Positions 2,242 through 16,443 of a DNA stretch of 64,000 bases are shown in pieces. The notes under the pieces were generated by a model. The model was not told the origin of the DNA. It saw only the letters and a program-made list of their open reading frames with translations, and made no database searches. The stretch covers positions 6,019 through 70,018 of the forward strand of contig CAKTZR010000013.1 in NCBI GenBank assembly GCA_934636105.1, in the 5' to 3' direction. The position numbers were made by a program, and so were the translations under genes. The DNA comes from an uncultured Clostridia bacterium (GTDB lineage: Bacteria; Bacillota; Clostridia; Christensenellales; Aristaeellaceae). Each line of letters opens with the position of its first letter. Within the stretch, counting starts at the first letter, position 1.

Positions 2242-3138
2242 TCACTTTGACAGTCTGCGAAATTCCAACGGAGGAACGCCGTAGACTTCCGCAAAAACCT
2301 TGGCAAATTTCCCCTGGTTCTCATAGCCCACCATGTCCGCAATCTCAATGACCTTCAGCGTCGTGGATTCCAGCAGCTCAGCCGCCTTTTCCATTCGCTT
2401 TTTCCGAAAGTAATTCAGATAGCTGTCCCCCAGAATTCCTTTCACATAGAACTTGAAGCTGCTTTCGCTGACGCCGAACCGATCTGCCAGCTCTTTTGCC
2501 GTGATCCGTCGAGACAGGTCGCCCAAAATCAATGCTTCCGCCTCTTTCACAATAGCGATCTGTGACCGGGTAAAGTAAGTATCCGGTTCGCTCTCTATGG
2601 GCATGGACATCAATTCATGCAAAAGGCGGACGGTCAGGTATCGCAGTGCGCCGATCTCCGGGTCGTCCTTTCCTGCCCAGGCGTCTGCCGCAAGCGCACG
2701 AAGCGCATCATTCATTTGGTGCAGGTACAGCCCGTTTTTTCCGCAGAATACTTCTACGACTTGTTCGAGCGAGACGCCCATCTCCGAGAGAAAGTCCTGC
2801 CCCTCTGCATCGTGCAGAATGTCAAGGTCCAAATAGAGTTGGATGCCTTCGTACAGCCTTCCGGGATAGTAGAAGTCCTTGGCGGGCAGTACGGTGCTGA
2901 CGCAGACCTGATTTTCCTTCACAATGGCATACCGGTTTTGCGCAAGAGAAACATCGCATCGACCATGAATGCAGAAATTAAGGATCAGCATTCGTTCCCC
3001 AAAGATAGAGCTGTCTCCTTTTTCCCAGCTGCTTGTATAGATTTCGTTGAATGAAATACGAATACCCGGCGCTAACGTGTAGAGATCCAGCACTCCCTCG
3101 TTTTCCTTTTGAAAGGTAAGATGATTTTGTATATTCAT
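2242..3138 (-). CDS. AraC-family transcriptional regulator
   Basis: 298-aa ORF. The C-terminal ~100 aa form the typical double HTH (ITAKELADRFGVSESSFKFYVK ... IEIADMVGYENQGKFAKVFAEVYGVPPLEFRR). The N-terminal ~180 aa form a ligand/dimerisation-type domain. Confidence 0.85.
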   Translation of the reverse strand: MNIQNHLTFQKENEGVLDLYTLAPGIRISFNEIYTSSWEKGDSSIFGERMLILNFCIHGRCDVSLAQNRYAIVKENQVCVSTVLPAKDFYYPGRLYEGIQLYLDLDILHDAEGQDFLSEMGVSLEQVVEVFCGKNGLYLHQMNDALRALAADAWAGKDDPEIGALRYLTVRLLHELMSMPIESEPDTYFTRSQIAIVKEAEALILGDLSRRITAKELADRFGVSESSFKFYVKGILGDSYLNYFRKKRMEKAAELLESTTLKVIEIADMVGYENQGKFAKVFAEVYGVPPLEFRRLSK

Positions 3139-3221
3139 AATATCATTTTAAGGAACTTCTTAGCGTATAAAATACTTTATAAGACAATAACCCCGTTAAA
3201 CCCCCCTTTGACGAGCGCCTT

Positions 3222-4355
3222 TTATTCCAGCGCAAGCCCCGGATCATCATGCGCGGGCAAATCCTCGAATGGGACGACGGCGATGGGGTTTAAATAATCG
3301 TCAGCGATGACGTAGGCGTTTCCAAGCGCATCGAGCGTGACATCATACAGATGAATGGCACGGGTGGTAAAATCGCGAATGTCGCGGGAGAGAATATGGC
3401 CCTGCGCGTCAAGCTCAAGCCGAAAAACGGTGAAAAGACCGCGCGAGTTGGCCATTGCCGTGCCATAGAGCACAACCGAGCCAGCCGCAGACGGGCATGC
3501 TGCCTGAACGCTGACGACGGTTTCTGGCGCGGCGAGCGTCTTCTGATAGAGCACGCGATTATGGACATCCAGCCGGGTGATCTGTGCGACAGTGTAGTTC
3601 TCAAACGGCGCGGTGCAGATGACAAGGCCGCCGTCCGCATCAAATTCAATCGTATTGTTGGATGCGCCGACGTAAGGCGATTGAACCGCCTGCTCGGAGA
3701 GCAGCTCTCCTGTTTTGGAGAAGGTGCGCAGAAGCATGTCCCCATGTATACCGATTAGGGCGTTGGGCGAATCGGGAACGGTATCGAGGGTCACGACGCG
3801 CAGCGTGCCGTTGGGCAGGAGCGCCGCGGCAGGCAGGATATAGCGCTTTTCGCTATCGAGCGGGTAGCTGAATTTCAGATTGCCCTCCCAATCCAAAAGC
3901 TCGATGGCCGGGGAGGATGATCCGTTCAAAATGCAGATGCCGTAATCCATAAGAACGGTTTGCCAGCGGTGATCCATCAGCTGAAGCAGAGGAGATGGCC
4001 CGCTGTTGGTCAGCCGAACATACTGTATGCCGAGCATGGGATCGCCGCGATAGGCCAGCGCGTAGCCATAGCAGTTCGCGTTCATCAGAAAGGCGGAAAA
4101 CAGCTTCCATTCGTCGTTTTCGTCAAAGGTTTTGCTGAATACAGTTTGGCCGTTTTCGACCAGCTCGATGGAGGACGGGAATTTGCCGCTGCTCATCCCG
4201 TTGTCGTGACGGACGAGAACCAGGACGGGCTGAATGGGTGTGACGCGCGCATAGGCGTCGCTGGTCACCTCGTAAGGAATCAAGCTGATTTCCGCCAACG
4301 CGCACGCTCCCATAAGCATCAGAAGAAAAATCAGCGCAAAGCCATACTTTTTCAT
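3222..4355 (-). CDS. Secreted protein of unknown function, paralog 1 of 4 (tandem family)
   Basis: 377 aa. It has an N-terminal signal peptide (MKKYGFALIFLLMLMGACALA/EI). An AGGAG site follows the upstream stop directly. The C-terminal block RGLFTVFRLELDAQGHILSRDIRDFTTRA...IAVVPFEDLPAHDDPGLALE is shared with the three upstream genes. Confidence 0.8.
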   Translation of the reverse strand: MKKYGFALIFLLMLMGACALAEISLIPYEVTSDAYARVTPIQPVLVLVRHDNGMSSGKFPSSIELVENGQTVFSKTFDENDEWKLFSAFLMNANCYGYALAYRGDPMLGIQYVRLTNSGPSPLLQLMDHRWQTVLMDYGICILNGSSSPAIELLDWEGNLKFSYPLDSEKRYILPAAALLPNGTLRVVTLDTVPDSPNALIGIHGDMLLRTFSKTGELLSEQAVQSPYVGASNNTIEFDADGGLVICTAPFENYTVAQITRLDVHNRVLYQKTLAAPETVVSVQAACPSAAGSVVLYGTAMANSRGLFTVFRLELDAQGHILSRDIRDFTTRAIHLYDVTLDALGNAYVIADDYLNPIAVVPFEDLPAHDDPGLALE

Positions 4356-4366
4356 AGGATTCTCCT

Positions 4367-5488
4367 TTATTCCAGCATAAGCCCCGGATCGTCGTGCGCG
4401 GGCAAATCCTCGAACGGGACGACGGCGATGGGGTAATCATCCGTGTCTCTGGTGACGGCGTAAAGGTTGCCGAGGGTATCCAACACTTCGTCATAGCGAT
4501 AGGTCGCGTGAGTCGTAAAATCGCGAATGTCGCGGGAGAGAATATTTCCCTGTGCATCGACATGCAGCTTGAAAATTGTGAACAGCCCGCGGGATTTGGC
4601 GACGGCCGAACCCATCAAAACGGTTTCATGGTCGGGCAGAAACTGAACCTGGGAGACGGCGACGATGGAGTTGGGCGCGCTGAGCGTCTTGCTCCAAAGC
4701 AGCGCGTTCTGCTCGTCCACACAGTTCAGCACGGAGGATTGATAGGGATCGCCGACCTGATATTGGCAAAGTACGTTGCCCTCGTCCGAAAAAAAGACCC
4801 TGGGGATGATCGCGTCGGTTGAATGGGGAAGAAGCAGATCGGAGAGCAGTGATCCGTCTGACAAAAGGCGCTGAACATGAAGGCCGTCTTCACAGTCGGG
4901 AACATAGGCAAGCGTGCCGTTGGGCCAAACGGTGTAGGCGTAAGGCGCGGACAAGGCAAGCGGAAGGGACGTGCTGGAAATCAAGTCGCCCTCCAGGTAA
5001 TAGCGATCGATGAATTGCGCGTCGCCCTCATGGCGCCGATTCAAAATGGAATCCGACGTGAAGCGATAATAGCCGGTGCCGCTGTTCAAGGTCATGCCCT
5101 TCGTCAAACCGTTGCCCAAAAGCAGCTGAAAGCGAACGGGACGGACAGTTTCAGTGTTCGGCTGGCAGGTAATCAGCCCATAGCGCGTAGGGCTGGCGGC
5201 GAAAAGCTCGTAAATCTGGCGCGTACCATCCTCTGCGTAGTCCGGCAATTCGATTTGCAGGCCGACTTTTCCTTTGTCATAGAGCGTGATGGAGGTCGGC
5301 AGGGTGTTTTCGTTGCTGCTGCCATAAGTTTTGTCAGTCAGCACAAGCGTCAGCGTGGGCGAGATAACCTGAACGGACGAGCCGTATTCGCTGGGCAGCT
5401 CATAAGGCGTGAGGTCGATTTCCGCGGCGGCGCAGGCGGAAACGAGTAAAAGCAGCGCGAAAAGAACGGCGGAAAAAGATGATTTCAT
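4367..5488 (-). CDS. Secreted protein of unknown function, paralog 2 of 4
   Basis: 373 aa. Signal peptide with a possible lipobox (LLLVSAC) or AxA site (AAA/EI). AAGGAGG RBS. Conserved N-terminal EIDLTPYE and C-terminal ...SRGLFTIFKLHVDAQGNILSRDIRDFTTHA...IAVVPFEDLPAHDDPGLMLE. Confidence 0.8.
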   Translation of the reverse strand: MKSSFSAVLFALLLLVSACAAAEIDLTPYELPSEYGSSVQVISPTLTLVLTDKTYGSSNENTLPTSITLYDKGKVGLQIELPDYAEDGTRQIYELFAASPTRYGLITCQPNTETVRPVRFQLLLGNGLTKGMTLNSGTGYYRFTSDSILNRRHEGDAQFIDRYYLEGDLISSTSLPLALSAPYAYTVWPNGTLAYVPDCEDGLHVQRLLSDGSLLSDLLLPHSTDAIIPRVFFSDEGNVLCQYQVGDPYQSSVLNCVDEQNALLWSKTLSAPNSIVAVSQVQFLPDHETVLMGSAVAKSRGLFTIFKLHVDAQGNILSRDIRDFTTHATYRYDEVLDTLGNLYAVTRDTDDYPIAVVPFEDLPAHDDPGLMLE

Positions 5489-5503
5489 GCGGGCTTCCTC
5501 CTT

Positions 5504-6628
5504 TTATTCCAGCACAAGGCCGGGGTCGTCGTGAATGGGCAAATCCTCGAAGGGGACGGCGGCGACAAGATGATCGGGATCGGAGGACAGGGTTTTGGCA
5601 TAGAGATTATCCTGCATATCGAGTGTGACGGTATACAAATAGGTTGAGCGCGTCGTGAAATCGCGGATATCGCGCGAAACGATGCTGCCGCTTGCGTCGA
5701 TTTTCAGCTTGAACACGGTGAACAGCTTGCGGGAATTGGCCATCGCCGTGCCATAGAGCCAAAGCGAATCGCCGCACAGTTTCATATGGGAGACGGAAAC
5801 AATGGTTTTGTCGGCGCGCAGAGCCTTGGCCCAGAGGATGCGCCCCTGCGCGTCGAAGCGAATGAGCTTGTCGTAAAAGTAGCGCGAATCATCGGAGGTG
5901 TGAAGAACGACTACGCCGCTTCCATCGTCAAACAGCTGACCGGAGAGGGGCGTGATGTCATCTGCTTGGGCGAGCTTGACGGATGTGGACGAGCCGTCCG
6001 GCTGAATGCGATAAAGCGACGCGATGGAGCCTTCTTCAAAAAAATAGTCACGAACAAGAATGGACAGCGAGCCGTCGGGCAGAGGCGCATAGCCAAGCCC
6101 GGTGGGCCGTGCGGTATTCAGCGGCGCTTCGAATTGCAGATGGCCCTGTTCATCATACAGACAGACGGAAGCGTTTTGGTCGCCGTTGCCTTGACGAATG
6201 GCGTATACGCCTCCGGAGAACAGCCAGGGGCTGATTGCATCGCTCGGCAGAGTGAAAAGCGGCTTGTCGCCGTTGGCGGTGATTTGAACATACTGCCGGA
6301 AGAGGTCTTCGCCCTCCCATTTGAACAAGATATAGCCCATGGTGCTTTCATCCAAGGCAAAAATGTCGAACAGCCGAAGCTCTGCGTCGTCGTCAAAAAC
6401 TTTTTCATAGGTCTTTTGGCCGTTGTTCCACAGCGTGACGGAGGTGGGCGCCTGCCCGTCGTTGATGATTCCGTCGTTCTGCACGAGGTACAGGCCCGGA
6501 TGAAACAGAATGGTATAAGAAGCATGGACGGCGGATGGGATTTCGTAGGGCTTCAGGTCGATCTGCGCCAAAGCGGACGAAGAAAGCAGCAGCAGAGCGA
6601 AAAAGACGGCCGGAAAAAAGCGTTTCAT
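5504..6628 (-). CDS. Secreted protein of unknown function, paralog 3 of 4
   Basis: 374 aa. Signal peptide (ALA/QIDLKPYE). AAGGAGGAG RBS. Conserved C-terminal ...SRKLFTVFKLKIDASGSIVSRDIRDFTTRS...AAVPFEDLPIHDDPGLVLE. Confidence 0.8.
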   Translation of the reverse strand: MKRFFPAVFFALLLLSSSALAQIDLKPYEIPSAVHASYTILFHPGLYLVQNDGIINDGQAPTSVTLWNNGQKTYEKVFDDDAELRLFDIFALDESTMGYILFKWEGEDLFRQYVQITANGDKPLFTLPSDAISPWLFSGGVYAIRQGNGDQNASVCLYDEQGHLQFEAPLNTARPTGLGYAPLPDGSLSILVRDYFFEEGSIASLYRIQPDGSSTSVKLAQADDITPLSGQLFDDGSGVVVLHTSDDSRYFYDKLIRFDAQGRILWAKALRADKTIVSVSHMKLCGDSLWLYGTAMANSRKLFTVFKLKIDASGSIVSRDIRDFTTRSTYLYTVTLDMQDNLYAKTLSSDPDHLVAAVPFEDLPIHDDPGLVLE

Positions 6629-6644
6629 GAAATGCTCCTCCTTT

Positions 6645-7778
6645 TCATTCCAGGATCAATTCAATATCGTCGCGGGTGGGCAAAGCTTCAAAGGGCACGA
6701 CGGCGATGCGGTTTTCATCTTTTGTGACGACATACGCGTTGCCGAGGGGATCGAGCTGAACCTGATATTGATCGCCTGCGCGGGTGGTGAAATCGCGAAC
6801 GTCGCGGGAAAGGATGCGCCCGAATGTGTCCAGCTCCAGCTTGAATGCGCGGAAAAGATTTTGGGAGTCCCGCTCGGCTATGCCGTAAACCGTGGCAGAG
6901 CCGTCATCATGCAGAATGGCTTGATGAACGAAGATGTTGACGTTTGCTGCTTTCAGACTTTCAGCAAAGCGCAGTTGACCTTGAGCATCCGAACAAGCAA
7001 GAAAGCAAAAATACGGCTCGCGGCGCTTGGCAAGTTTGGCCACAGCATAAGACAGCATGCCGCCGTTAGGCGAAAATGCACCGGAAGGGATGATGCTTGT
7101 ATTTGATAGAGAAATGGGAACGGAGGAAAGCAGCCCGCCGTCGGGAGAAAGACGCAGATGATATAGCTTGCATGGATTATGCGAATCGCCGATATCGTAG
7201 GCGATGTAAGCGATGCTTTTGTCGTTCAGAACGGTGAAACCGCTGTATAACGTGGCTTCAATCGCAGAAATCGGTGTGGAGGAGAGCAAAGCGCCGCTCC
7301 AATCCAGGTGTTCGATGAGATACAGGTCGTCCTGTTTGCGCAGAATGCAGGGACCATCGGGCAGAACAGAAAGGCTGGATAAACGGTCGCTCAAGGAAAA
7401 GCCTTCGGAGAGCACGCCGTTTTCCAAAAGCTGACAGCGCGTGAAAGACGTGCTGTCATAACTCATCAGACCGTAACGATCTTTGTCCGCCGCAAAGAGA
7501 ACGTAAAAGGTGCGAAATTCGCTGTTGTCGGCGTAATCCGGCAGGTATTGTTCAAATACCTTTTGCCCATGGTCGAGCAGAACGAGCGCCGTCGGCAGCT
7601 GGCCGCCGTTCATGATGCCGTCGTGAAGCACCAGATACACGTCCGGCGCAAGAATTTCAACGGCAGAAAAGCGGGCGCTTTCGATTTCATACGGTTTCAA
7701 ATCGATCTCCGCCAAAGCGGATGCGGAAAGCAGCAGCACCGTTAGCAAAGCTGCAAAGAAGCGGCATTTGGTCAGCAT
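6645..7778 (-). CDS. Secreted protein of unknown function, paralog 4 of 4 (most divergent)
   Basis: The start is moved to the ATG at 7778 (MLTKCRFFAALL...), which follows GGGAGG plus 7 nt. The track start at 7823 has no RBS. Signal peptide ALA/EIDLKPYE. C-terminal ...NLFRAFKLELDTFGRILSRDVRDFTTRA...IAVVPFEALPTRDDIELILE. Confidence 0.75.
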   Translation of the reverse strand: MLTKCRFFAALLTVLLLSASALAEIDLKPYEIESARFSAVEILAPDVYLVLHDGIMNGGQLPTALVLLDHGQKVFEQYLPDYADNSEFRTFYVLFAADKDRYGLMSYDSTSFTRCQLLENGVLSEGFSLSDRLSSLSVLPDGPCILRKQDDLYLIEHLDWSGALLSSTPISAIEATLYSGFTVLNDKSIAYIAYDIGDSHNPCKLYHLRLSPDGGLLSSVPISLSNTSIIPSGAFSPNGGMLSYAVAKLAKRREPYFCFLACSDAQGQLRFAESLKAANVNIFVHQAILHDDGSATVYGIAERDSQNLFRAFKLELDTFGRILSRDVRDFTTRAGDQYQVQLDPLGNAYVVTKDENRIAVVPFEALPTRDDIELILE

Positions 7779-7863
7779 ACAAAAACCTCCCTGTATGTTG
7801 TCTATACTTATAAGACGACACACAGAGAGGAAAATTTCATCAATTTTTTAATTTTTAGAACTC

Positions 7864-9075
7864 TTACTCGCCCAGCATCAAAAGCTCGACCATCTTCGCG
7901 CAGCGATCCATGCTCTCTACTGCGATGTGCTCATACGGGCCGTGGAAAGCGAAGCCGCCGGTGCAGAGATTCGGCGTGGGCAGACCCATGTAGGAGAGCC
8001 GGCAGCCGTCCGTGCCGCCGCGCACCGCCTCGATGAACGGCTTCATGCCCGCCTGCTCACAGGCGCGCTTCGCATTTTCAACCAGCTCCATGTGGTCGGC
8101 CAGCTTTTCAGCCATGTTGTAGTAACTGTCCTTGAGCGTGAGGGTGACGACCTTGCGGCCGTATTTTTCGTTGATGACCTTTGCGGCGTGCTCCATCAGC
8201 TTCTTGCGCGCTTCGAAGGTTGCACGATCGTGGTCGCGGACGATGTAATGCAGCTCGGCCTGCTCCACGTCGCCCTTCATGTCGCACAGGTGGAAGAAGC
8301 CCTCGTAGCCCTCCGTCAGCCGCGGAATGTCGGAAGCGGGGAGCAGCCCGTTGAACTCCATCGCAACCAGCGCTGCGTTAATCATCGTGTCCTTCGAAGA
8401 ACCGGGATGCACGCTCAAGCCCTCGAAATGCACGTCCGCCGAGCAGGCGTTAAAGGTTTCATAGGCGATTTCGCCCTCCTCGCCGCCGTCCACCGTGTAG
8501 GCGAAGGTCGCGCCGAATTTGGCCACATCGAAGTGATCCACGCCCGCGCCGATTTCCTCATCCGGCGTGAAGGCGATGCAGAGTTTGCCGTGCGGGGCTT
8601 TGCTGGCGATGACGGCTCCCAGAGCGGTCATGATTTCCGCAATGCCCGCCTTGTCGTCCGCGCCGAGCAGGGTCGTGCCGTCCGTCGTGATGAGCGTCAT
8701 CCCCGCCAGTTTCTTGAGACCGGGGAAGGCCGCCGGGCTGAGCGTTTCGCCGCTGCCGGGAAGCGCCACGTCGCCGCCGTCGTAGTGCTCGATGATCTGC
8801 GGTTTCACGTTTTCGCCGGAGCAATCCGGTGCGGTATCCATGTGGGCGATGAAACCGAGCGCGGGCCTGCCTTCGCAGCCCGGCGTTGCGGACAGCCAGC
8901 CGTAAACAATGCCATTTTCATCGACATGGACGTTTTCAAGGCCGAGGGCGTTCAGCTCGTCCACCAGGATGTGCGCCAGATCGTATTGACGCATGGAGCT
9001 GGGGACGGTGGTGCTGTCCGGGTCGGAGGTGGTGTAAACCGAAACATATTTGAGCAGACGTTCGTATGCGCGCAT
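7864..9075 (-). CDS. pepT: Peptidase T (tripeptide aminopeptidase, M20B family)
   Basis: 403 aa. The N-terminus MRAYERLLKYVSVYTTSDPDS..., metal-ligand contexts (FIAHMDTAPD, GADDKAGIAEIM, FTPDEEIG) and the C-terminal FHGPYE are typical of PepT. Confidence 0.9.
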   Translation of the reverse strand: MRAYERLLKYVSVYTTSDPDSTTVPSSMRQYDLAHILVDELNALGLENVHVDENGIVYGWLSATPGCEGRPALGFIAHMDTAPDCSGENVKPQIIEHYDGGDVALPGSGETLSPAAFPGLKKLAGMTLITTDGTTLLGADDKAGIAEIMTALGAVIASKAPHGKLCIAFTPDEEIGAGVDHFDVAKFGATFAYTVDGGEEGEIAYETFNACSADVHFEGLSVHPGSSKDTMINAALVAMEFNGLLPASDIPRLTEGYEGFFHLCDMKGDVEQAELHYIVRDHDRATFEARKKLMEHAAKVINEKYGRKVVTLTLKDSYYNMAEKLADHMELVENAKRACEQAGMKPFIEAVRGGTDGCRLSYMGLPTPNLCTGGFAFHGPYEHIAVESMDRCAKMVELLMLGE

Positions 9076-9215: not shown

Positions 9216-10079
9216 ATGGATAAAAATCAAATCAATGGGCTGATTGACGCGTTTGATTCTGCATTGATGAGAACGGAAGATAATCAGGTTGAATACTGGT
9301 ATGCCAGAGATTTAATGCAGCTTTTGGGCTACACGAGATGGGAAAATTTTGAAAATGTGATTTTGAAAGCGATGGAAGCTTGCAGAAATAGCGAAAATGC
9401 GGTTGAAGATCAATTTCGTGAGGTCACGAAATTGATCGAGCATGGAAAAGGCGGAAAAAGACCAATTCGTGATTACATGCTGACCAGATATGCGTGCTAC
9501 TTGGTTGCGCAGAACGGCGACCCTAAGAAAACGGAGATTGCTTTTGCGCAGAGCTATTTTGCCGTACAAACGAGAAAACAGGAAATCATAGAAGAACGCG
9601 TTTCTTATATGGAACGTGTGCAGGCGCGGACGAGGCTGATAGAATCAGAAAAAAGACTTTCACAGAATATTTATGAACGGGGCGTTGATGATAAAGGATT
9701 TGGCAGAATCCGTTCAAAGGGGGATCAAGCGCTTTTCGGCGGATATTCGACCCAAGAGATGAAGGATAAGCTTGGTGTGAAAAGCAATCGACCTTTGGCG
9801 GACTTTTTGCCGACGCTGACCATTGCGGCGAAGAATTTGGCGACGGAAATGACCAACTATAACGTTGAAGAAAAGAATCTATACGGAGAAGGCAGCATCA
9901 CGACGGAGCATGTTCAAAACAATACGTCAGTTCGTGATATGCTGGGGCAGAGAGGAATTAAACCTGAAAATTTGCCGCCCTCGGAGGATATAAAAAAGAT
10001 GGAGCGTCGAGTGAAACGGGAAACGAACCGGATGATTGAAAAATCGGGGACGCTGCCCAAAACGGAAAAGGATAAATAA
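9216..10079 (+). CDS. dinD: DNA-damage-inducible protein D (DinD/Bro-N-like)
   Basis: 287 aa. It is colinear by eye with E. coli DinD (…LLGY…W..F…KA.EAC.NS……RYACYLVAQNGDPKK…AQSYFAVQTRKQE). GGAGG RBS at 9204-9208. The gene is visibly more AT-rich than its neighbours. Confidence 0.8.
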   Translation: MDKNQINGLIDAFDSALMRTEDNQVEYWYARDLMQLLGYTRWENFENVILKAMEACRNSENAVEDQFREVTKLIEHGKGGKRPIRDYMLTRYACYLVAQNGDPKKTEIAFAQSYFAVQTRKQEIIEERVSYMERVQARTRLIESEKRLSQNIYERGVDDKGFGRIRSKGDQALFGGYSTQEMKDKLGVKSNRPLADFLPTLTIAAKNLATEMTNYNVEEKNLYGEGSITTEHVQNNTSVRDMLGQRGIKPENLPPSEDIKKMERRVKRETNRMIEKSGTLPKTEKDK

Positions 10080-13263: not shown

Positions 13264-14529
13264 GTGAAAAAGTCCATTTCTCTGCTTCTGGCGGCTGTCA
13301 TGGTCTTCGCGCTGGCGGCGATCGCCTGTGCGGACGCCACGACCCTGACCGCGTGGATCACCGATGGCGCCGAGACGGTTGTCTACACCAGCATGTTCGA
13401 TGATTTCAATTCGAAGCATGACGACATCAAGGTGGATTATCAGTTCTTTGCGCAGGATGAGCTGCTCAACAAGCTGCAGACCGCCCCGATCGTCGGCGAT
13501 ACCCCCGACCTCGTCATCGTTGACGGTCTCCAGATTCCGTATTTCCAGGATCTGGGCATGATCGCTTGCCTCGACGATTACATCGACGAGGACATGAAGA
13601 ACGACGTGCTCCCGTCCGTGTGGGATGAAGTGACCTACGACGGCAGCCTCTACGGCGTGGCGCAGTTCGACTCCGGCATGGCCATGTGGACGCGCAAGAG
13701 CATCCTTGAAAAGATCGGCGCGCGCATCCCGACTTCCTACAAGGACGCGTGGACGGTCGAGGAATTTGAGGATATCCTCGCCAAGTGCAAGGAGATCGGC
13801 TACGAGTATCCGCTCTACATCCGCCAGAACAAGACCAGCTCGGTGTACTTCACCTGGATGCCGGTCATCGCTTCCTTCGGCGGCGACTACCTCAACCGTG
13901 AAACCATGCTCGCGACCGGCACGCTGGACAGCGAAGGCACCATCGCGGCGTATGATTGGATGAAGCGTATGATCGACGAAGGCTACGTCAACGCGGCCTG
14001 CGACTACGAGGATGCGTTCTATGGCCGCGACGAGGCTGCCTTCTCCATGCTCGGCCACTGGAAATACAGCCAGCATGTGGAAGCGTTCGGCGACGACGCG
14101 ATCATCGTTCCGATGCCGGACTTCGGCAACGGCGTGTTCACCTGCTCCGGTTCTACCGTTGACGTGATGACCACCGCGGCCGTCGAGCGCGGCGTGGCGG
14201 ATCAGGCCTGGACGGTGCTTCAGGCGATGATGAGCCCGGAATACATCCAGATGGTTTGCGAAGTGAACGGCGGCGTTCCGGCGCGCAAGACCGTCATGGA
14301 CGGCATGGAGCAGTGGCAGGAGGGCGGCCGCCTGTACCTGTATCGTGAGCAGCTGGAAGCTGGCATCAGCTACCTGCGCCCGATCACCCCGGCTCACCTG
14401 ACCGTTTACAACCAGATGGCGAGCGTCGTGACCAACATTCTTGCTGGCGGCGATCCGGCTGAGCTGCTGCATGAAGCGGCCGAGTACGTTGACGAGATCA
14501 TCGTCGAGAACGGCTGGAACATCGAGTAA
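13264..14529 (+). CDS. Carbohydrate ABC transporter substrate-binding protein (family 1)
   Basis: 421 aa. GTG start after AAGGAGGAAA. Signal peptide/lipoprotein-like N-terminus (LLLAAVMVFALAAIAC). MalE-like SBP sequence features. Confidence 0.88.
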   Translation: MKKSISLLLAAVMVFALAAIACADATTLTAWITDGAETVVYTSMFDDFNSKHDDIKVDYQFFAQDELLNKLQTAPIVGDTPDLVIVDGLQIPYFQDLGMIACLDDYIDEDMKNDVLPSVWDEVTYDGSLYGVAQFDSGMAMWTRKSILEKIGARIPTSYKDAWTVEEFEDILAKCKEIGYEYPLYIRQNKTSSVYFTWMPVIASFGGDYLNRETMLATGTLDSEGTIAAYDWMKRMIDEGYVNAACDYEDAFYGRDEAAFSMLGHWKYSQHVEAFGDDAIIVPMPDFGNGVFTCSGSTVDVMTTAAVERGVADQAWTVLQAMMSPEYIQMVCEVNGGVPARKTVMDGMEQWQEGGRLYLYREQLEAGISYLRPITPAHLTVYNQMASVVTNILAGGDPAELLHEAAEYVDEIIVENGWNIE

Positions 14530-14538
14530 AACCACATT

Positions 14539-14575
14539 GTGCCCGGCCGGCCAACGCTGACCGGGCACTTCTTTT
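14539..14575 (+). terminator. Intra-operon hairpin/attenuating terminator after the SBP gene
   Basis: GTGCCCGG ...14 nt... CCGGGCAC followed by TTCTTTT. This is the usual position for the SBP-transcript-stabilising or partial terminator of ABC operons. Confidence 0.5.
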
Positions 14576-14668
14576 ACCCTTTGAACCCGAAAAACACAAT
14601 CAAAGCCAAACAGGGAGAGCCGTCATGCTGACGGACAACCGGCATGGCGAGAGAACGGAGCATTGCGT

Positions 14669-15589
14669 ATGAGCGAAGTCACTGTCAAGAGAAGCGGGGC
14701 CAAGCGGAGGAGCCAGCTGTCCCGCGCGCAGGCGAAAGCCGCGTGGGGTTTGTCCGCACCGGCGATTATCATCATGTTTTTGTTCATGATCCTGCCGTTT
14801 TTCATGTCTGTTTTCTATTCCTTCACGGATCGCAGACTGGTGCTCAATCCGAACAAGCCGACCAAGTTCGTCGGCTGGTCGAACTACATCAAGACCTTCA
14901 CCAACAAGACCGCCCTTCAGGCGTTCTGGAATACGTTTGAATACACGATCATCCTCGTGCCGGTCGTGCTGATTCTGGCCACGCTGCTGGCGCTGCTGGT
15001 CAACCGCAAGGCGAAGGGCGTGACCTTCTTCCGCATGATTTATTTCTCGCCGCAGGTTGTGACGATGACTGTTGTGACGGTTATTTGGGGCTTCTTCTTC
15101 TCCAGTACGTCGGACGGCCTGTTCAACTCCATCCTGGGCGTGTTCGGCATTCCGGCGCAGAAGTGGCTTCAGGATACGGGCCTGGCCATGCCCTCGATTG
15201 CGATCATGTCCATCTGGCAGTGCGTCGGCATGCAGATGATTATCATGCTCGGCGGCCTCCAGTTCATCCCGGAGGAGCTGTATGAGGCGGGCACAATCGA
15301 CGGCGCCAACACCTGGCAGCAGTTTATCTACATCACCATCCCGCAGCTGAAGAACACGCTGGTGTACGTCTTCATTTCCAACACGATCTATTCTCTCAAG
15401 ATGTTCACGCAGGTGTATATGCTCACGCAGGGCGGCCCGGCGGGCTCGACCACGACGCTGGTCTACCTGATGTATCAGGAGGGCTTCACCAACAACCGCG
15501 TGGGTTACACCTCCGCGATGGCCGTCGTGTTCTTCCTGATCGTGCTGGCAATCTCCCTGATTCAGAATAAGCTTACGGAGGGCGACTGA
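14669..15589 (+). CDS. Carbohydrate ABC transporter permease (MalF/UgpA-like)
   Basis: The ATG at 14669 lies 8 nt after GGAG; the track start at 14663 is a TTG. It has six TM segments and an EAA-type loop (EELYEAGTIDGANTWQQFIYITIPQL). Confidence 0.9.
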   Translation: MSEVTVKRSGAKRRSQLSRAQAKAAWGLSAPAIIIMFLFMILPFFMSVFYSFTDRRLVLNPNKPTKFVGWSNYIKTFTNKTALQAFWNTFEYTIILVPVVLILATLLALLVNRKAKGVTFFRMIYFSPQVVTMTVVTVIWGFFFSSTSDGLFNSILGVFGIPAQKWLQDTGLAMPSIAIMSIWQCVGMQMIIMLGGLQFIPEELYEAGTIDGANTWQQFIYITIPQLKNTLVYVFISNTIYSLKMFTQVYMLTQGGPAGSTTTLVYLMYQEGFTNNRVGYTSAMAVVFFLIVLAISLIQNKLTEGD

Positions 15590-15591
15590 TT

Positions 15592-16443
15592 ATGAAAGTG
15601 GAAAACAAGAGAAAGAAGACGGTCACGTCCGCCCTGTTCTATGTGCTCTATATCGCGCTGGCAATCATCTTCCTGGCGCCGCTGCTGTTCCTGTTCGTTT
15701 CTTCTGTCAAGAGCGAAACGCAGCTCGTTTCGGATATGTCGACGCTCAAGGCGTTCATTCCTTACGGCAACCTGACGTTTGAAAACTACGTCGCCGTGTT
15801 TGAGAAGCTCGACTTCCTGCATTACTTCCGTAACTCCGCCATCAACGCCATTTTGCAGGTGTTCATCGGCATGTTTATCAACGGCATGATGGGCTACGCG
15901 CTGGGCATGCTGGAATTCCGCGGTCAGAAACTCCTTGTCTCGCTGATGATCGCGCTGACCATCATCCCGACCGAAGCCGTCATCATCAACCGCTTCATGG
16001 TCGCTTTCAATCTGGGCATCATCAACACCATCTGGGCGCTGGCCATCCCGAATCTGGCGACGCCGATGTATGTCTTCCTGTTCTATCAGCATTTCCGCGG
16101 CATGCCGAAGGACCTGCTGGAGGCGGCCATCATCGACGGCGAGAGCTACACCGGTGTGTTCTTCAAGATCATGACCCCGCTCTCCAAGCCGATCTACGCG
16201 ACCGTTGCGATCATGTCCTTCATCCGCGCGTGGGGCGATCTGCTCTGGCCGACGCTCGTCACCCGTGATAACACCTGGCGCACGCTGCCGCAGGCGCTGC
16301 GCGGCCTGAACGACTCGGTCTATACCTTCTGGGGACAGATTTTCGCGTTCAGCGCCATGATTACCCTGCCGATTCTGATTATCTTCCTGGCGTTCCAGAA
16401 GCAGTTTGTGCAGTCCGTCGCGATGTCCGGCATCAAGGGATAA
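15592..16443 (+). CDS. Carbohydrate ABC transporter permease (MalG/UgpE-like)
   Basis: 283 aa. EAA loop (DLLEAAIIDGESYTGVFFKIMTPLSKP). It starts 2 nt after the upstream stop. Confidence 0.9.
   Translation: MKVENKRKKTVTSALFYVLYIALAIIFLAPLLFLFVSSVKSETQLVSDMSTLKAFIPYGNLTFENYVAVFEKLDFLHYFRNSAINAILQVFIGMFINGMMGYALGMLEFRGQKLLVSLMIALTIIPTEAVIINRFMVAFNLGIINTIWALAIPNLATPMYVFLFYQHFRGMPKDLLEAAIIDGESYTGVFFKIMTPLSKPIYATVAIMSFIRAWGDLLWPTLVTRDNTWRTLPQALRGLNDSVYTFWGQIFAFSAMITLPILIIFLAFQKQFVQSVAMSGIKG

Follow-up and report, generated by a model that had tools for sequence, protein, structure and literature searches.

The stretch analysed here, hereafter the window, is a 64-kb piece of DNA from an uncultured gut Clostridia bacterium. 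Its open reading frame (ORF) listing and sequence place four co-directional minus-strand genes, A, B, C and D, at positions 3222-7778. The four encode paralogs that look secreted and are each predicted to fold as a seven-bladed beta-propeller, and they form an array between a peptidase T gene and a gene for an AraC-family regulator. In order of transcription, with lengths in amino acids (aa), the features are:

7864-9075, minus strand: pepT (peptidase T, M20 family; Pfam Peptidase_M20 and M20_dimer), upstream of the array
7779-7863, minus strand: pepT-to-array intergenic region, with a conserved upstream element and the ribosome-binding site GGGAGG (7786-7791)
6645-7778, minus strand: gene A, 377 aa; core type A; signal peptide residues 1-23; mature protein 39.2 kDa, isoelectric point (pI) 4.7; tail sequence VPFEALPTRDDIELILE
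5504-6628, minus strand: gene B, 374 aa; core type B; signal peptide 1-21; mature N-terminus QIDLKPYEI
4367-5488, minus strand: gene C, 373 aa; core type C; signal peptide 1-22; non-conserved Cys at -4
3222-4355, minus strand: gene D, 377 aa; core type D, the most widespread type
2242-3138, minus strand: AraC-family regulator (Pfam AraC/HTH_18), downstream of the array

The genes are separated by 16 (A-B), 15 (B-C) and 11 (C-D) nucleotides (nt). Every gap contains AGGAGG or AGGAG right behind the stop codon of the preceding gene, and GGGAGG stands ahead of gene A, much as a sequence-only reading of this DNA had described them; the strand is minus. That reading had also put pepT upstream and an AraC gene downstream on the same strand, which Pfam confirmed. 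A terminator scan of the array gave six matches against 7.9 expected from shuffled sequence, that is, no enrichment; three of these terminator-like matches are on the coding strand, have short stems and lie within genes A, B and D. In three related loci (L003, L008 and L011), a hairpin followed by a T-run stands directly 3' of the last array gene. Co-direction, short gaps, separate ribosome-binding sites and internal terminator-like matches at no more than chance frequency together predict an operon-like unit.

In an alignment, all four proteins show a signal peptide ending in ALA or AAA, a mature start of the form E/Q-I-D/S-L-x-P-Y-E and a C-terminal motif, ...SR.LF..F.L..D..G.I.SRD(I/V)RDFTT...VPFE.LP..DD..L.LE-stop, all as previously noted. 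Any two of the four are 34-40% identical over their full length; the figure falls to 22-31% in the core (alignment columns 61-300) and rises to 47-62% over the final 100 columns. The cores had been called barely alignable, yet they align throughout. A search with B of a database of 5.8 billion proteins retrieved the D-type cluster P0022 (100% identical to window gene D) at E = 2.5e-60, the C-type cluster P0026 at 4.8e-46 and the A-type clusters P0031, P0032 and P0034 at ~1e-38. The four genes are thus homologous far beyond chance on their sequences.

No Pfam, NCBIfam, PHROGs or PADLOC model was matched at threshold by the four proteins, in keeping with the first impression that they carry no Pfam-like signature. 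The only Pfam match at E <= 1 was a sub-threshold one to Phytase-like (E 0.035; 14.5 bits against a cut-off of 27.6), and none of the four reached the thresholds of Pfam SBBP, DUF5122 or PQQ_2. A word-indexed search found 36 clusters, all of 336-396 aa, unnamed and without Pfam domains, and a second such search with a diverse alignment added one distant member only. A library-wide profile search was more productive, returning 981 representatives at E <= 1e-3 and 136 at E <= 1e-10. Dozens of these are proteins of 360-390 aa with an AxA-ending signal peptide, an (E/A)-F-D-L-x-P-Y start and a shared C-terminus (...YG.AVANSR..Y.VF.L..D..G...S.DVRDFS...DY...LVPFD.LP.A.DPGI.L(E)). This broad family has the same termini as the window proteins. 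Larger multi-repeat proteins carrying Pfam DUF5122, SBBP, PQQ_2 or PKD were matched over blades 3-6 only and appear from this coverage to be relatives at the level of blades. Where sources name family members, they are 'hypothetical protein' from metagenome-assembled genomes of Christensenellales or Clostridia, and one cluster at 90% identity comprises 1,539 member sequences in public metagenomes. The window proteins belong to a broad, uncharacterised and previously undescribed family inside a very well-known fold class.

That fold class was identified by structure prediction. AlphaFold2 models of B (predicted local distance difference test (pLDDT) 84.5, predicted template-modelling score (pTM) 0.81; alignment of 40 sequences) and of A (pLDDT 91.3, pTM 0.89; 84 sequences) are both all-beta, with 28 strands arranged as seven blades of four. 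Foldseek comparison with the PDB returned propellers only, mostly seven-bladed: CylK, Sec12, the PALB2 WD40 domain, BT1487 and the Photorhabdus PHL lectin, at E 4e-7 to 1e-5, template-modelling (TM) scores of ~0.5-0.6 and identities of 9-14%, with probability 1.00 to many seven-bladed propellers. Viral structures likewise gave generic propellers only and no tie to phage receptor-binding proteins. A PDB sequence search with a four-paralog profile found nothing meaningful; a 45-sequence family profile matched the designed propeller v31Bagel8 (1.1e-6), CylK (3.5e-3) and the Brat NHL domain (~0.015), and these matches run through the variable core, at profile positions ~106-257. We therefore predict that each protein is a single seven-bladed beta-propeller, and because models and profile matches alike point to propellers, the Gly/Asp/Ser-turn pattern of the cores is best read as the Asp-Gly turns of propeller blades. 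Thus a fold can be named where none had been recognized, although matches are generic to the propeller fold rather than to one characterised family over the whole protein.

Mapped onto the models, the variable core corresponds to blades 1-4, and the ~75-aa C-terminal 'module' to blades 6 and 7 plus the tail; in B numbering, blade 6 spans 276-323 and blade 7 spans 332-359, followed by a 15-residue tail. Propeller blades are thus predicted for the C-terminal third. Across 79 family sequences made non-redundant at 70% identity, conservation is 1.0-1.1 bits per site in blades 1-4, 1.5 in blade 5, 2.0 in blade 6, 1.6 in blade 7 and 1.7 in the N-terminal motif, and it peaks at 2.1 in the C-terminal tail, the most conserved segment family-wide. 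The pattern of conserved ends and a variable middle, first seen in four paralogs, therefore holds over the wider family. The tail is modelled with pLDDT of 92-95 in B and 95-97 in A as a short helix with beta-bridges, and in these models it looks like an ordered fold element rather than a tag.

Blade 7 of B has just three contiguous strands (332-359), and a short strand at 29-31 (the P-Y-E of the N-terminal motif, right behind the cleavage site) could complete it together with a strand at 372-373. In most propellers the ring is closed by a blade to which both N- and C-terminal strands contribute, the 'velcro' closure (PMC3797127). By this topology, the N-terminal motif and the tail would meet at blade 7 in a velcro-type closure, which would explain their joint conservation. 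Mean-field coevolution analysis for contacts between the termini, with ~84 effective sequences, gave gap artefacts as its top pairs. The most conserved polar residues (Y250, S299, R300, D320, R322 and D323 in B) lie in or beside loops of one parity in strand order, a topology that would place them on the propeller face opposite the Asp-Gly turns. Blades 1-4 retain structural Asp-Gly turns only and no polar residues.

Clustering by core identity resolved six discrete types, A-F, as a minimum for this clade. Between types, identity is 19-30% in the core (24%) and 43-67% in the C-terminal third (53%). Among orthologs, the ratio of nonsynonymous to synonymous substitution rates (dN/dS) in the core is 0.17-0.46 by the Nei-Gojobori method, and no informative pair showed a core value above 1. 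B orthologs of two species are 80% identical at a synonymous divergence (dS) of 0.53, and orthologs of C are 98% (L001), 83% (L011) and 63% (L008) identical. By these measures each core type is old and under purifying selection. The cores had been taken for hypervariable; six discrete old types with ortholog dN/dS of 0.17-0.46 show that their diversity is not point-mutational hypervariation.

The paralogs themselves are also old. Between them, dS is 1.2-1.8 in the C-terminal third, so synonymous sites are saturated there too, and the ends have been kept by selection on the protein. Recent gene conversion as the source of the conserved C-terminus is ruled out overall by this saturation, with one exception. 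The last 69 nt of D (3221-3289) and C (4366-4434) are 93% identical, with synonymous sites saturated elsewhere, which suggests a short local gene-conversion tract at the 3' ends of these adjacent genes.

Related genomes carry the family in a single slot directly behind pepT, with rpoC on the far side where the contig reaches; the rpoC side is out of contig reach in L009 and L019-L021. Four copies occur in the window and in six related loci (L001, L002, L004, L005, L006 and L008), at least three in L007, L009 and L019-L021, where the contig ends at or soon past the array (the first gene of L007 is cut by the contig start), two in L003 and L011 and one in L010. The copy-number and neighbour survey suggested earlier thus yields one to four copies in a pepT-to-rpoC slot. 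The question it carried, whether the family is normally single-copy, is answered differently by lineage: single-copy members occur in L010, L012, L013 and L016, some of them in other lineages, and the pepT clade has one to four copies.

Type composition differs between closely related strains. Slot 2, occupied here by gene B, holds type E in other strains and a type F or D-like gene in related species. In L001 and L005, whose flanks are 98-100% identical, the slot-2 gene is exchanged exactly from start to stop, B by E, with nucleotide identity falling to ~40% over the slot and a mosaic 3' end of gene 1 (78-88%). L003 and L011 have flanks that are 97-100% identical, and their gene 2 is D-type in one and C-type in the other over codons ~30-300; the first ~30 and last ~65 codons are common to both, the 3' ~200 nt being 98-100% identical. 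L019 and L009 (flanks 99% identical) differ by an F-type gene inserted between genes 1 and 2, with a junction of one gene's 3' end and the next gene's 5' end on both sides. The variant genes recur in several independent assemblies or contigs, which argues against assembly artefacts. Because the junctions in all three strain pairs lie at or in the conserved ends, recombination there appears to join different cores, and these comparisons show or strongly predict that types are gained, lost and exchanged as whole genes or cores. The sequence-only reading had proposed a diversifying family; the locus does vary between strains, by cassette turnover and not by mutation of the cores. Among the called neighbours of related loci we found no reverse transcriptase with a template repeat and no invertase with inverted repeats, and the only repeats detected at the array are direct repeats at gene ends.

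Ahead of gene A stands a conserved element, TGAAATTTTCCTC (7827-7839), followed after 9 nt by CGTCTTATAAGTAT (7804-7817). The surrounding block, which reads ...cATGAAATTTTCCTC-N9-CGTCTTATAAGTATAGACAACA...GGGAGG, is near-invariant over ~75 nt across species with a coding dS of 0.5-0.9, and the sequence further upstream is unalignable. A similar block precedes the distant family gene of L015, also behind pepT. The spacer of TGAAATTTTCC-N-CGTCTTATA is 16 nt, that is, TGAAAT-N16-CGTC. Promoters of extracytoplasmic function (ECF) sigma factors have the consensus tGAAACnTTTt, a 14-17 nt spacer and CGTC or CGTA (PMC5758882), and by this resemblance the block is possibly an ECF-type promoter.

Two further features of this region were observed. 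A second copy of the box, GTCTTATAAAGTAT, lies at 3172-3185 on the minus strand, past gene D and upstream of the AraC gene; it resembles CGTCTTATAAGTAT and comes without the TGAAATTTTCC part. The resemblance may be due to chance, or the two boxes may share a role as a -10 or operator-like element. On the minus strand at 7794-7818, an imperfect palindrome, TGTCGTCT-N8-AGACAACA, overlaps the -10-like box ahead of gene A; its right arm varies among species with no clear compensatory changes, and it could be an operator or a hairpin of the 5' untranslated region.

The signal peptides, judged by inspection, consist of MK(R/K), 12-15 hydrophobic residues and A-x-A before E/Q-I-D-L, a pattern kept in 40 relatives, so the proteins look like substrates of Sec and signal peptidase I. 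The mature proteins are ~39 kDa and acidic (pI 4.5-4.7). A lipobox-like Cys had been pointed out in two copies, and C and D alone among the four do have one, four residues ahead of the cleavage site. At this position, orthologs carry P, S, A, W, Y or I while keeping the AxA site; the Cys is not conserved, and lipoprotein anchoring of C and D was rejected on this ground. The four proteins contain no LPXTG or LPxT[GA] motif and no hydrophobic anchor; hydrophobic runs in their mature parts reach 6 residues at most. Pfam and NCBIfam scans of the four detected no C-terminal sorting domain such as dockerin or T9SS CTD.

The genes called around the array in L001-L007 and L019-L021 are pepT, Bro-N, Mem_trans, dnaX, feoAB, AraC and rpoC, and marker searches put pepT, dnaX and rpoC in like position in L008-L011. 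PepT is the upstream neighbour in every related locus but is not next to the distant members of L013 and L016. It also precedes the distant member of L015 (P0056, ~23-28% identical to B), where positions 1-175 hold the end of the upstream ORF, called as pepT from its translation (...ESMDRCAKMVELLM...). Gene order thus suggests that the pepT association extends past the close clade, though other distant members occur without pepT; functional coupling to pepT, also considered, is no more than possible. The distant members whose contexts were read are lone genes in unrelated neighbourhoods (L013 and L016) or a tandem pair behind pepT (L015), and, pepT in L015 aside, no neighbour gene is common to the array clade and the distant members in these contexts. 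In the same gene contexts, no sortase, exosortase, secretion system or partner gene lies beside family genes.

We also considered the AraC gene as a dedicated regulator of the array, which is unlikely since L003, L008, L010 and L011 do not have it and feoAB separates it from the array in L001 and L005; the gene probably lies outside the array system. Strains of one species differ in the feoA-feoB pair, for ferrous iron transport, which lies on the opposite strand between array and AraC gene in L001 (comparison region 13408-15917), L002, L005 and L007. The window and L004 do not have it, and there gene D is 83 nt from the AraC gene (3139-3221 in the window). L004 is a human-gut metagenome scaffold (SAMEA4765641) whose array and flank proteins are 100% identical to those of the window.

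Upstream of pepT, a gene for a 287-aa Bro-N domain protein (9216-10079, plus strand) lies between pepT and the Mem_trans permease gene in a patch of low guanine-cytosine (GC) content, 0.44 against ~0.6 in the flanks. It is present in the window's species and missing at that position in L003 and L008-L011; it looks like a small insertion, possibly phage-derived. On the strand opposite the four genes there are long ORFs as well, of at most 313 aa (for example, 5786-6727, plus strand); no homology backs them, and GC-rich codon usage in the sense genes is their simplest explanation. Whole-window scans found no tRNA genes and no Rfam families at gathering score in the 64 kb.

Taken together, we favour, with moderate confidence, an operon-like array of old paralogs encoding secreted seven-bladed propellers with conserved blades 5-7 and termini and swappable blades 1-4, which would act as binding modules. 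The termini would clasp the propeller ring at blade 7, and blades 5-7 with the termini would form a common structural, closure or docking base. Blades 1-4 would present type-specific ligand surfaces, so that the array may deliver several binding specificities at once, and one conserved promoter, possibly of ECF-sigma type, would drive the whole set. The proteins would act outside the cell, and their function is probably that of extracellular binding modules, as fold and conservation suggest. The lack of conserved polar residues in blades 1-4 argues against a central active site drawing on all blades and favours binding over catalysis.

Several points weigh against this account. The binding function is read from fold class and conservation pattern, and strand counts with loop parity are the basis for placing the N-terminal strand and the tail against blade 7. 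The high pLDDT of the tail may partly reflect its strong conservation. The conserved residues S299, R300, D320, R322, D323 and Y250 could likewise belong to a catalytic site or a specific binding site. The strain comparisons all rest on metagenome assemblies. In the candidate promoter, the -35-like box has AAT where ECF promoters normally have AAC, and a search of the window with a SigW sequence as query gave no ECF sigma gene, a result that is weak either way.

The alternative that survives best, though we consider it unlikely, is that the paralogs are largely redundant, with termini conserved only for ring closure and export, cores adrift under relaxed constraint and differences in copy number and type arising from neutral unequal crossing-over between tandem repeats. 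A core dN/dS of 0.17-0.46 is fairly high for bacterial genes, single-copy genomes occur (L010, L012, L013 and L016), and unequal crossing-over predicts junctions in conserved ends. Against this, every core type is kept by purifying selection across species (type B at 80% identity and dS 0.53), types just 19-30% identical persist side by side, and neither deletion nor duplication in a simple form accounts for the exact one-for-one exchange of B by E.

Distinctly less probable is a family of secreted enzymes on a propeller scaffold, such as a lyase, lactonase or CylK-like alkyl-transferase, in which the conserved Ser-Arg, Arg-Asp-Phe and Tyr of blades 5-7 would make up the active site and the cores would set the substrate range. 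Propeller active sites usually draw on several blades around a central channel. CylK is the best structural match (4.2e-7) and a match of the sequence profile, loop parity clusters the conserved polar residues in loops on one face of blades 5-7, and there is the weak sub-threshold Phytase-like match (E 0.035). But with TM of only ~0.55 and 12% identity, the CylK match is a generic one, blades 1-4 retain no polar residues, and the proteins show no metal-binding pattern and no Pfam or NCBIfam enzyme match; an enzyme site confined to blades 5-7 is possible. The idea advanced from the sequence was that the acidic C-terminal tail serves as a tag for docking, sorting or processing and that the family is a hypervariable repertoire of surface proteins or decoys. 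It draws on the tail being the most conserved segment and always ending the protein, and on type sets that differ between strains, but it is very improbable given a tail predicted to be ordered (pLDDT 92-97, short helix and beta-bridges), the lack of any transmembrane segment, LPXTG motif or dockerin or CTD model match, no sortase, exosortase or secretion genes near family genes in the contexts read, and cores that are not hypervariable.

Building on the favoured account of secreted binding propellers, a more speculative proposal, which we put forward only tentatively and regard as improbable as a whole, is that the conserved termini have a dual role as protein closure or docking base and as DNA recombination handles. 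Gut Christensenellales-like bacteria would then exchange propeller 'specificity cassettes' between paralogs and strains, a population-level diversification kept by frequency-dependent selection from host, phages or competitors. The finding itself is modest: the fold is common, and recombining tandem paralog arrays are a familiar theme. It gives a fold and a family definition to 'hypothetical proteins' that recur in uncultured gut Clostridia, and it indicates that swaps of secreted-protein variants, within one fixed slot of the chromosome, are among the strain-level differences of these bacteria. Should the types differ in the ligands they bind, strain-specific interactions in the gut would have a compact marker in this locus, and perhaps also a determinant.

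The window proteins can be set against several known propellers. The C-terminal propeller of CylK, SBBP (PF06739) and DUF5122 (PF17164) likewise have seven four-stranded blades with Asp-Gly turn repeats, and CylK (7ron/7fh6) is the best Foldseek match, at E 4e-7 and TM 0.54-0.57, with a marginal profile match (E 3.5e-3). However, CylK, an intracellular biosynthetic enzyme with an additional N-terminal domain, is only ~12% identical to the window proteins, and the (E/F)-DLxPYE start and VPF-LP-DPG-L-E end are specific to the window family with respect to all three. PQQ-like, BamB and 'Bagel' propellers share the blade motif h-h-h-D-x-x-G-x-h-h-W and would share a terminal 'velcro' blade (described in general in PMC3797127), and v31Bagel8 is the best PDB sequence match of the family profile (1.1e-6 over the core). 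BamB-type proteins have eight blades and are usually lipoproteins, whereas the window proteins have seven predicted blades, no conserved lipobox, no PQQ_2 match and a conservation concentrated in blades 5-7. The Photorhabdus PHL/PLL lectins are, like the window proteins, single-domain secreted seven-bladed propellers of ~340-370 aa (Foldseek TM ~0.47-0.5), and a functional analogy as multivalent extracellular binders is plausible. The blades of PHL are near-identical, each with a sugar site, whereas those of the window family are dissimilar and share no repeated binding motif, so the likeness is one of fold only.

At the level of the locus, the array recalls a general class of recombining polymorphic loci with conserved ends and exchangeable middles, which includes surface-protein and pilin cassettes and polymorphic toxin loci. 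As in those systems, conserved 5' and 3' segments flank divergent cassettes, breakpoints fall in the conserved segments and near-identical strains differ. Unlike them, the array comes without silent donor copies, an invertase, a reverse transcriptase or a toxin-immunity pair, all of its copies appear to be tandemly expressed, and what is exchanged is the larger part of a globular propeller, not a surface loop or a toxin domain.

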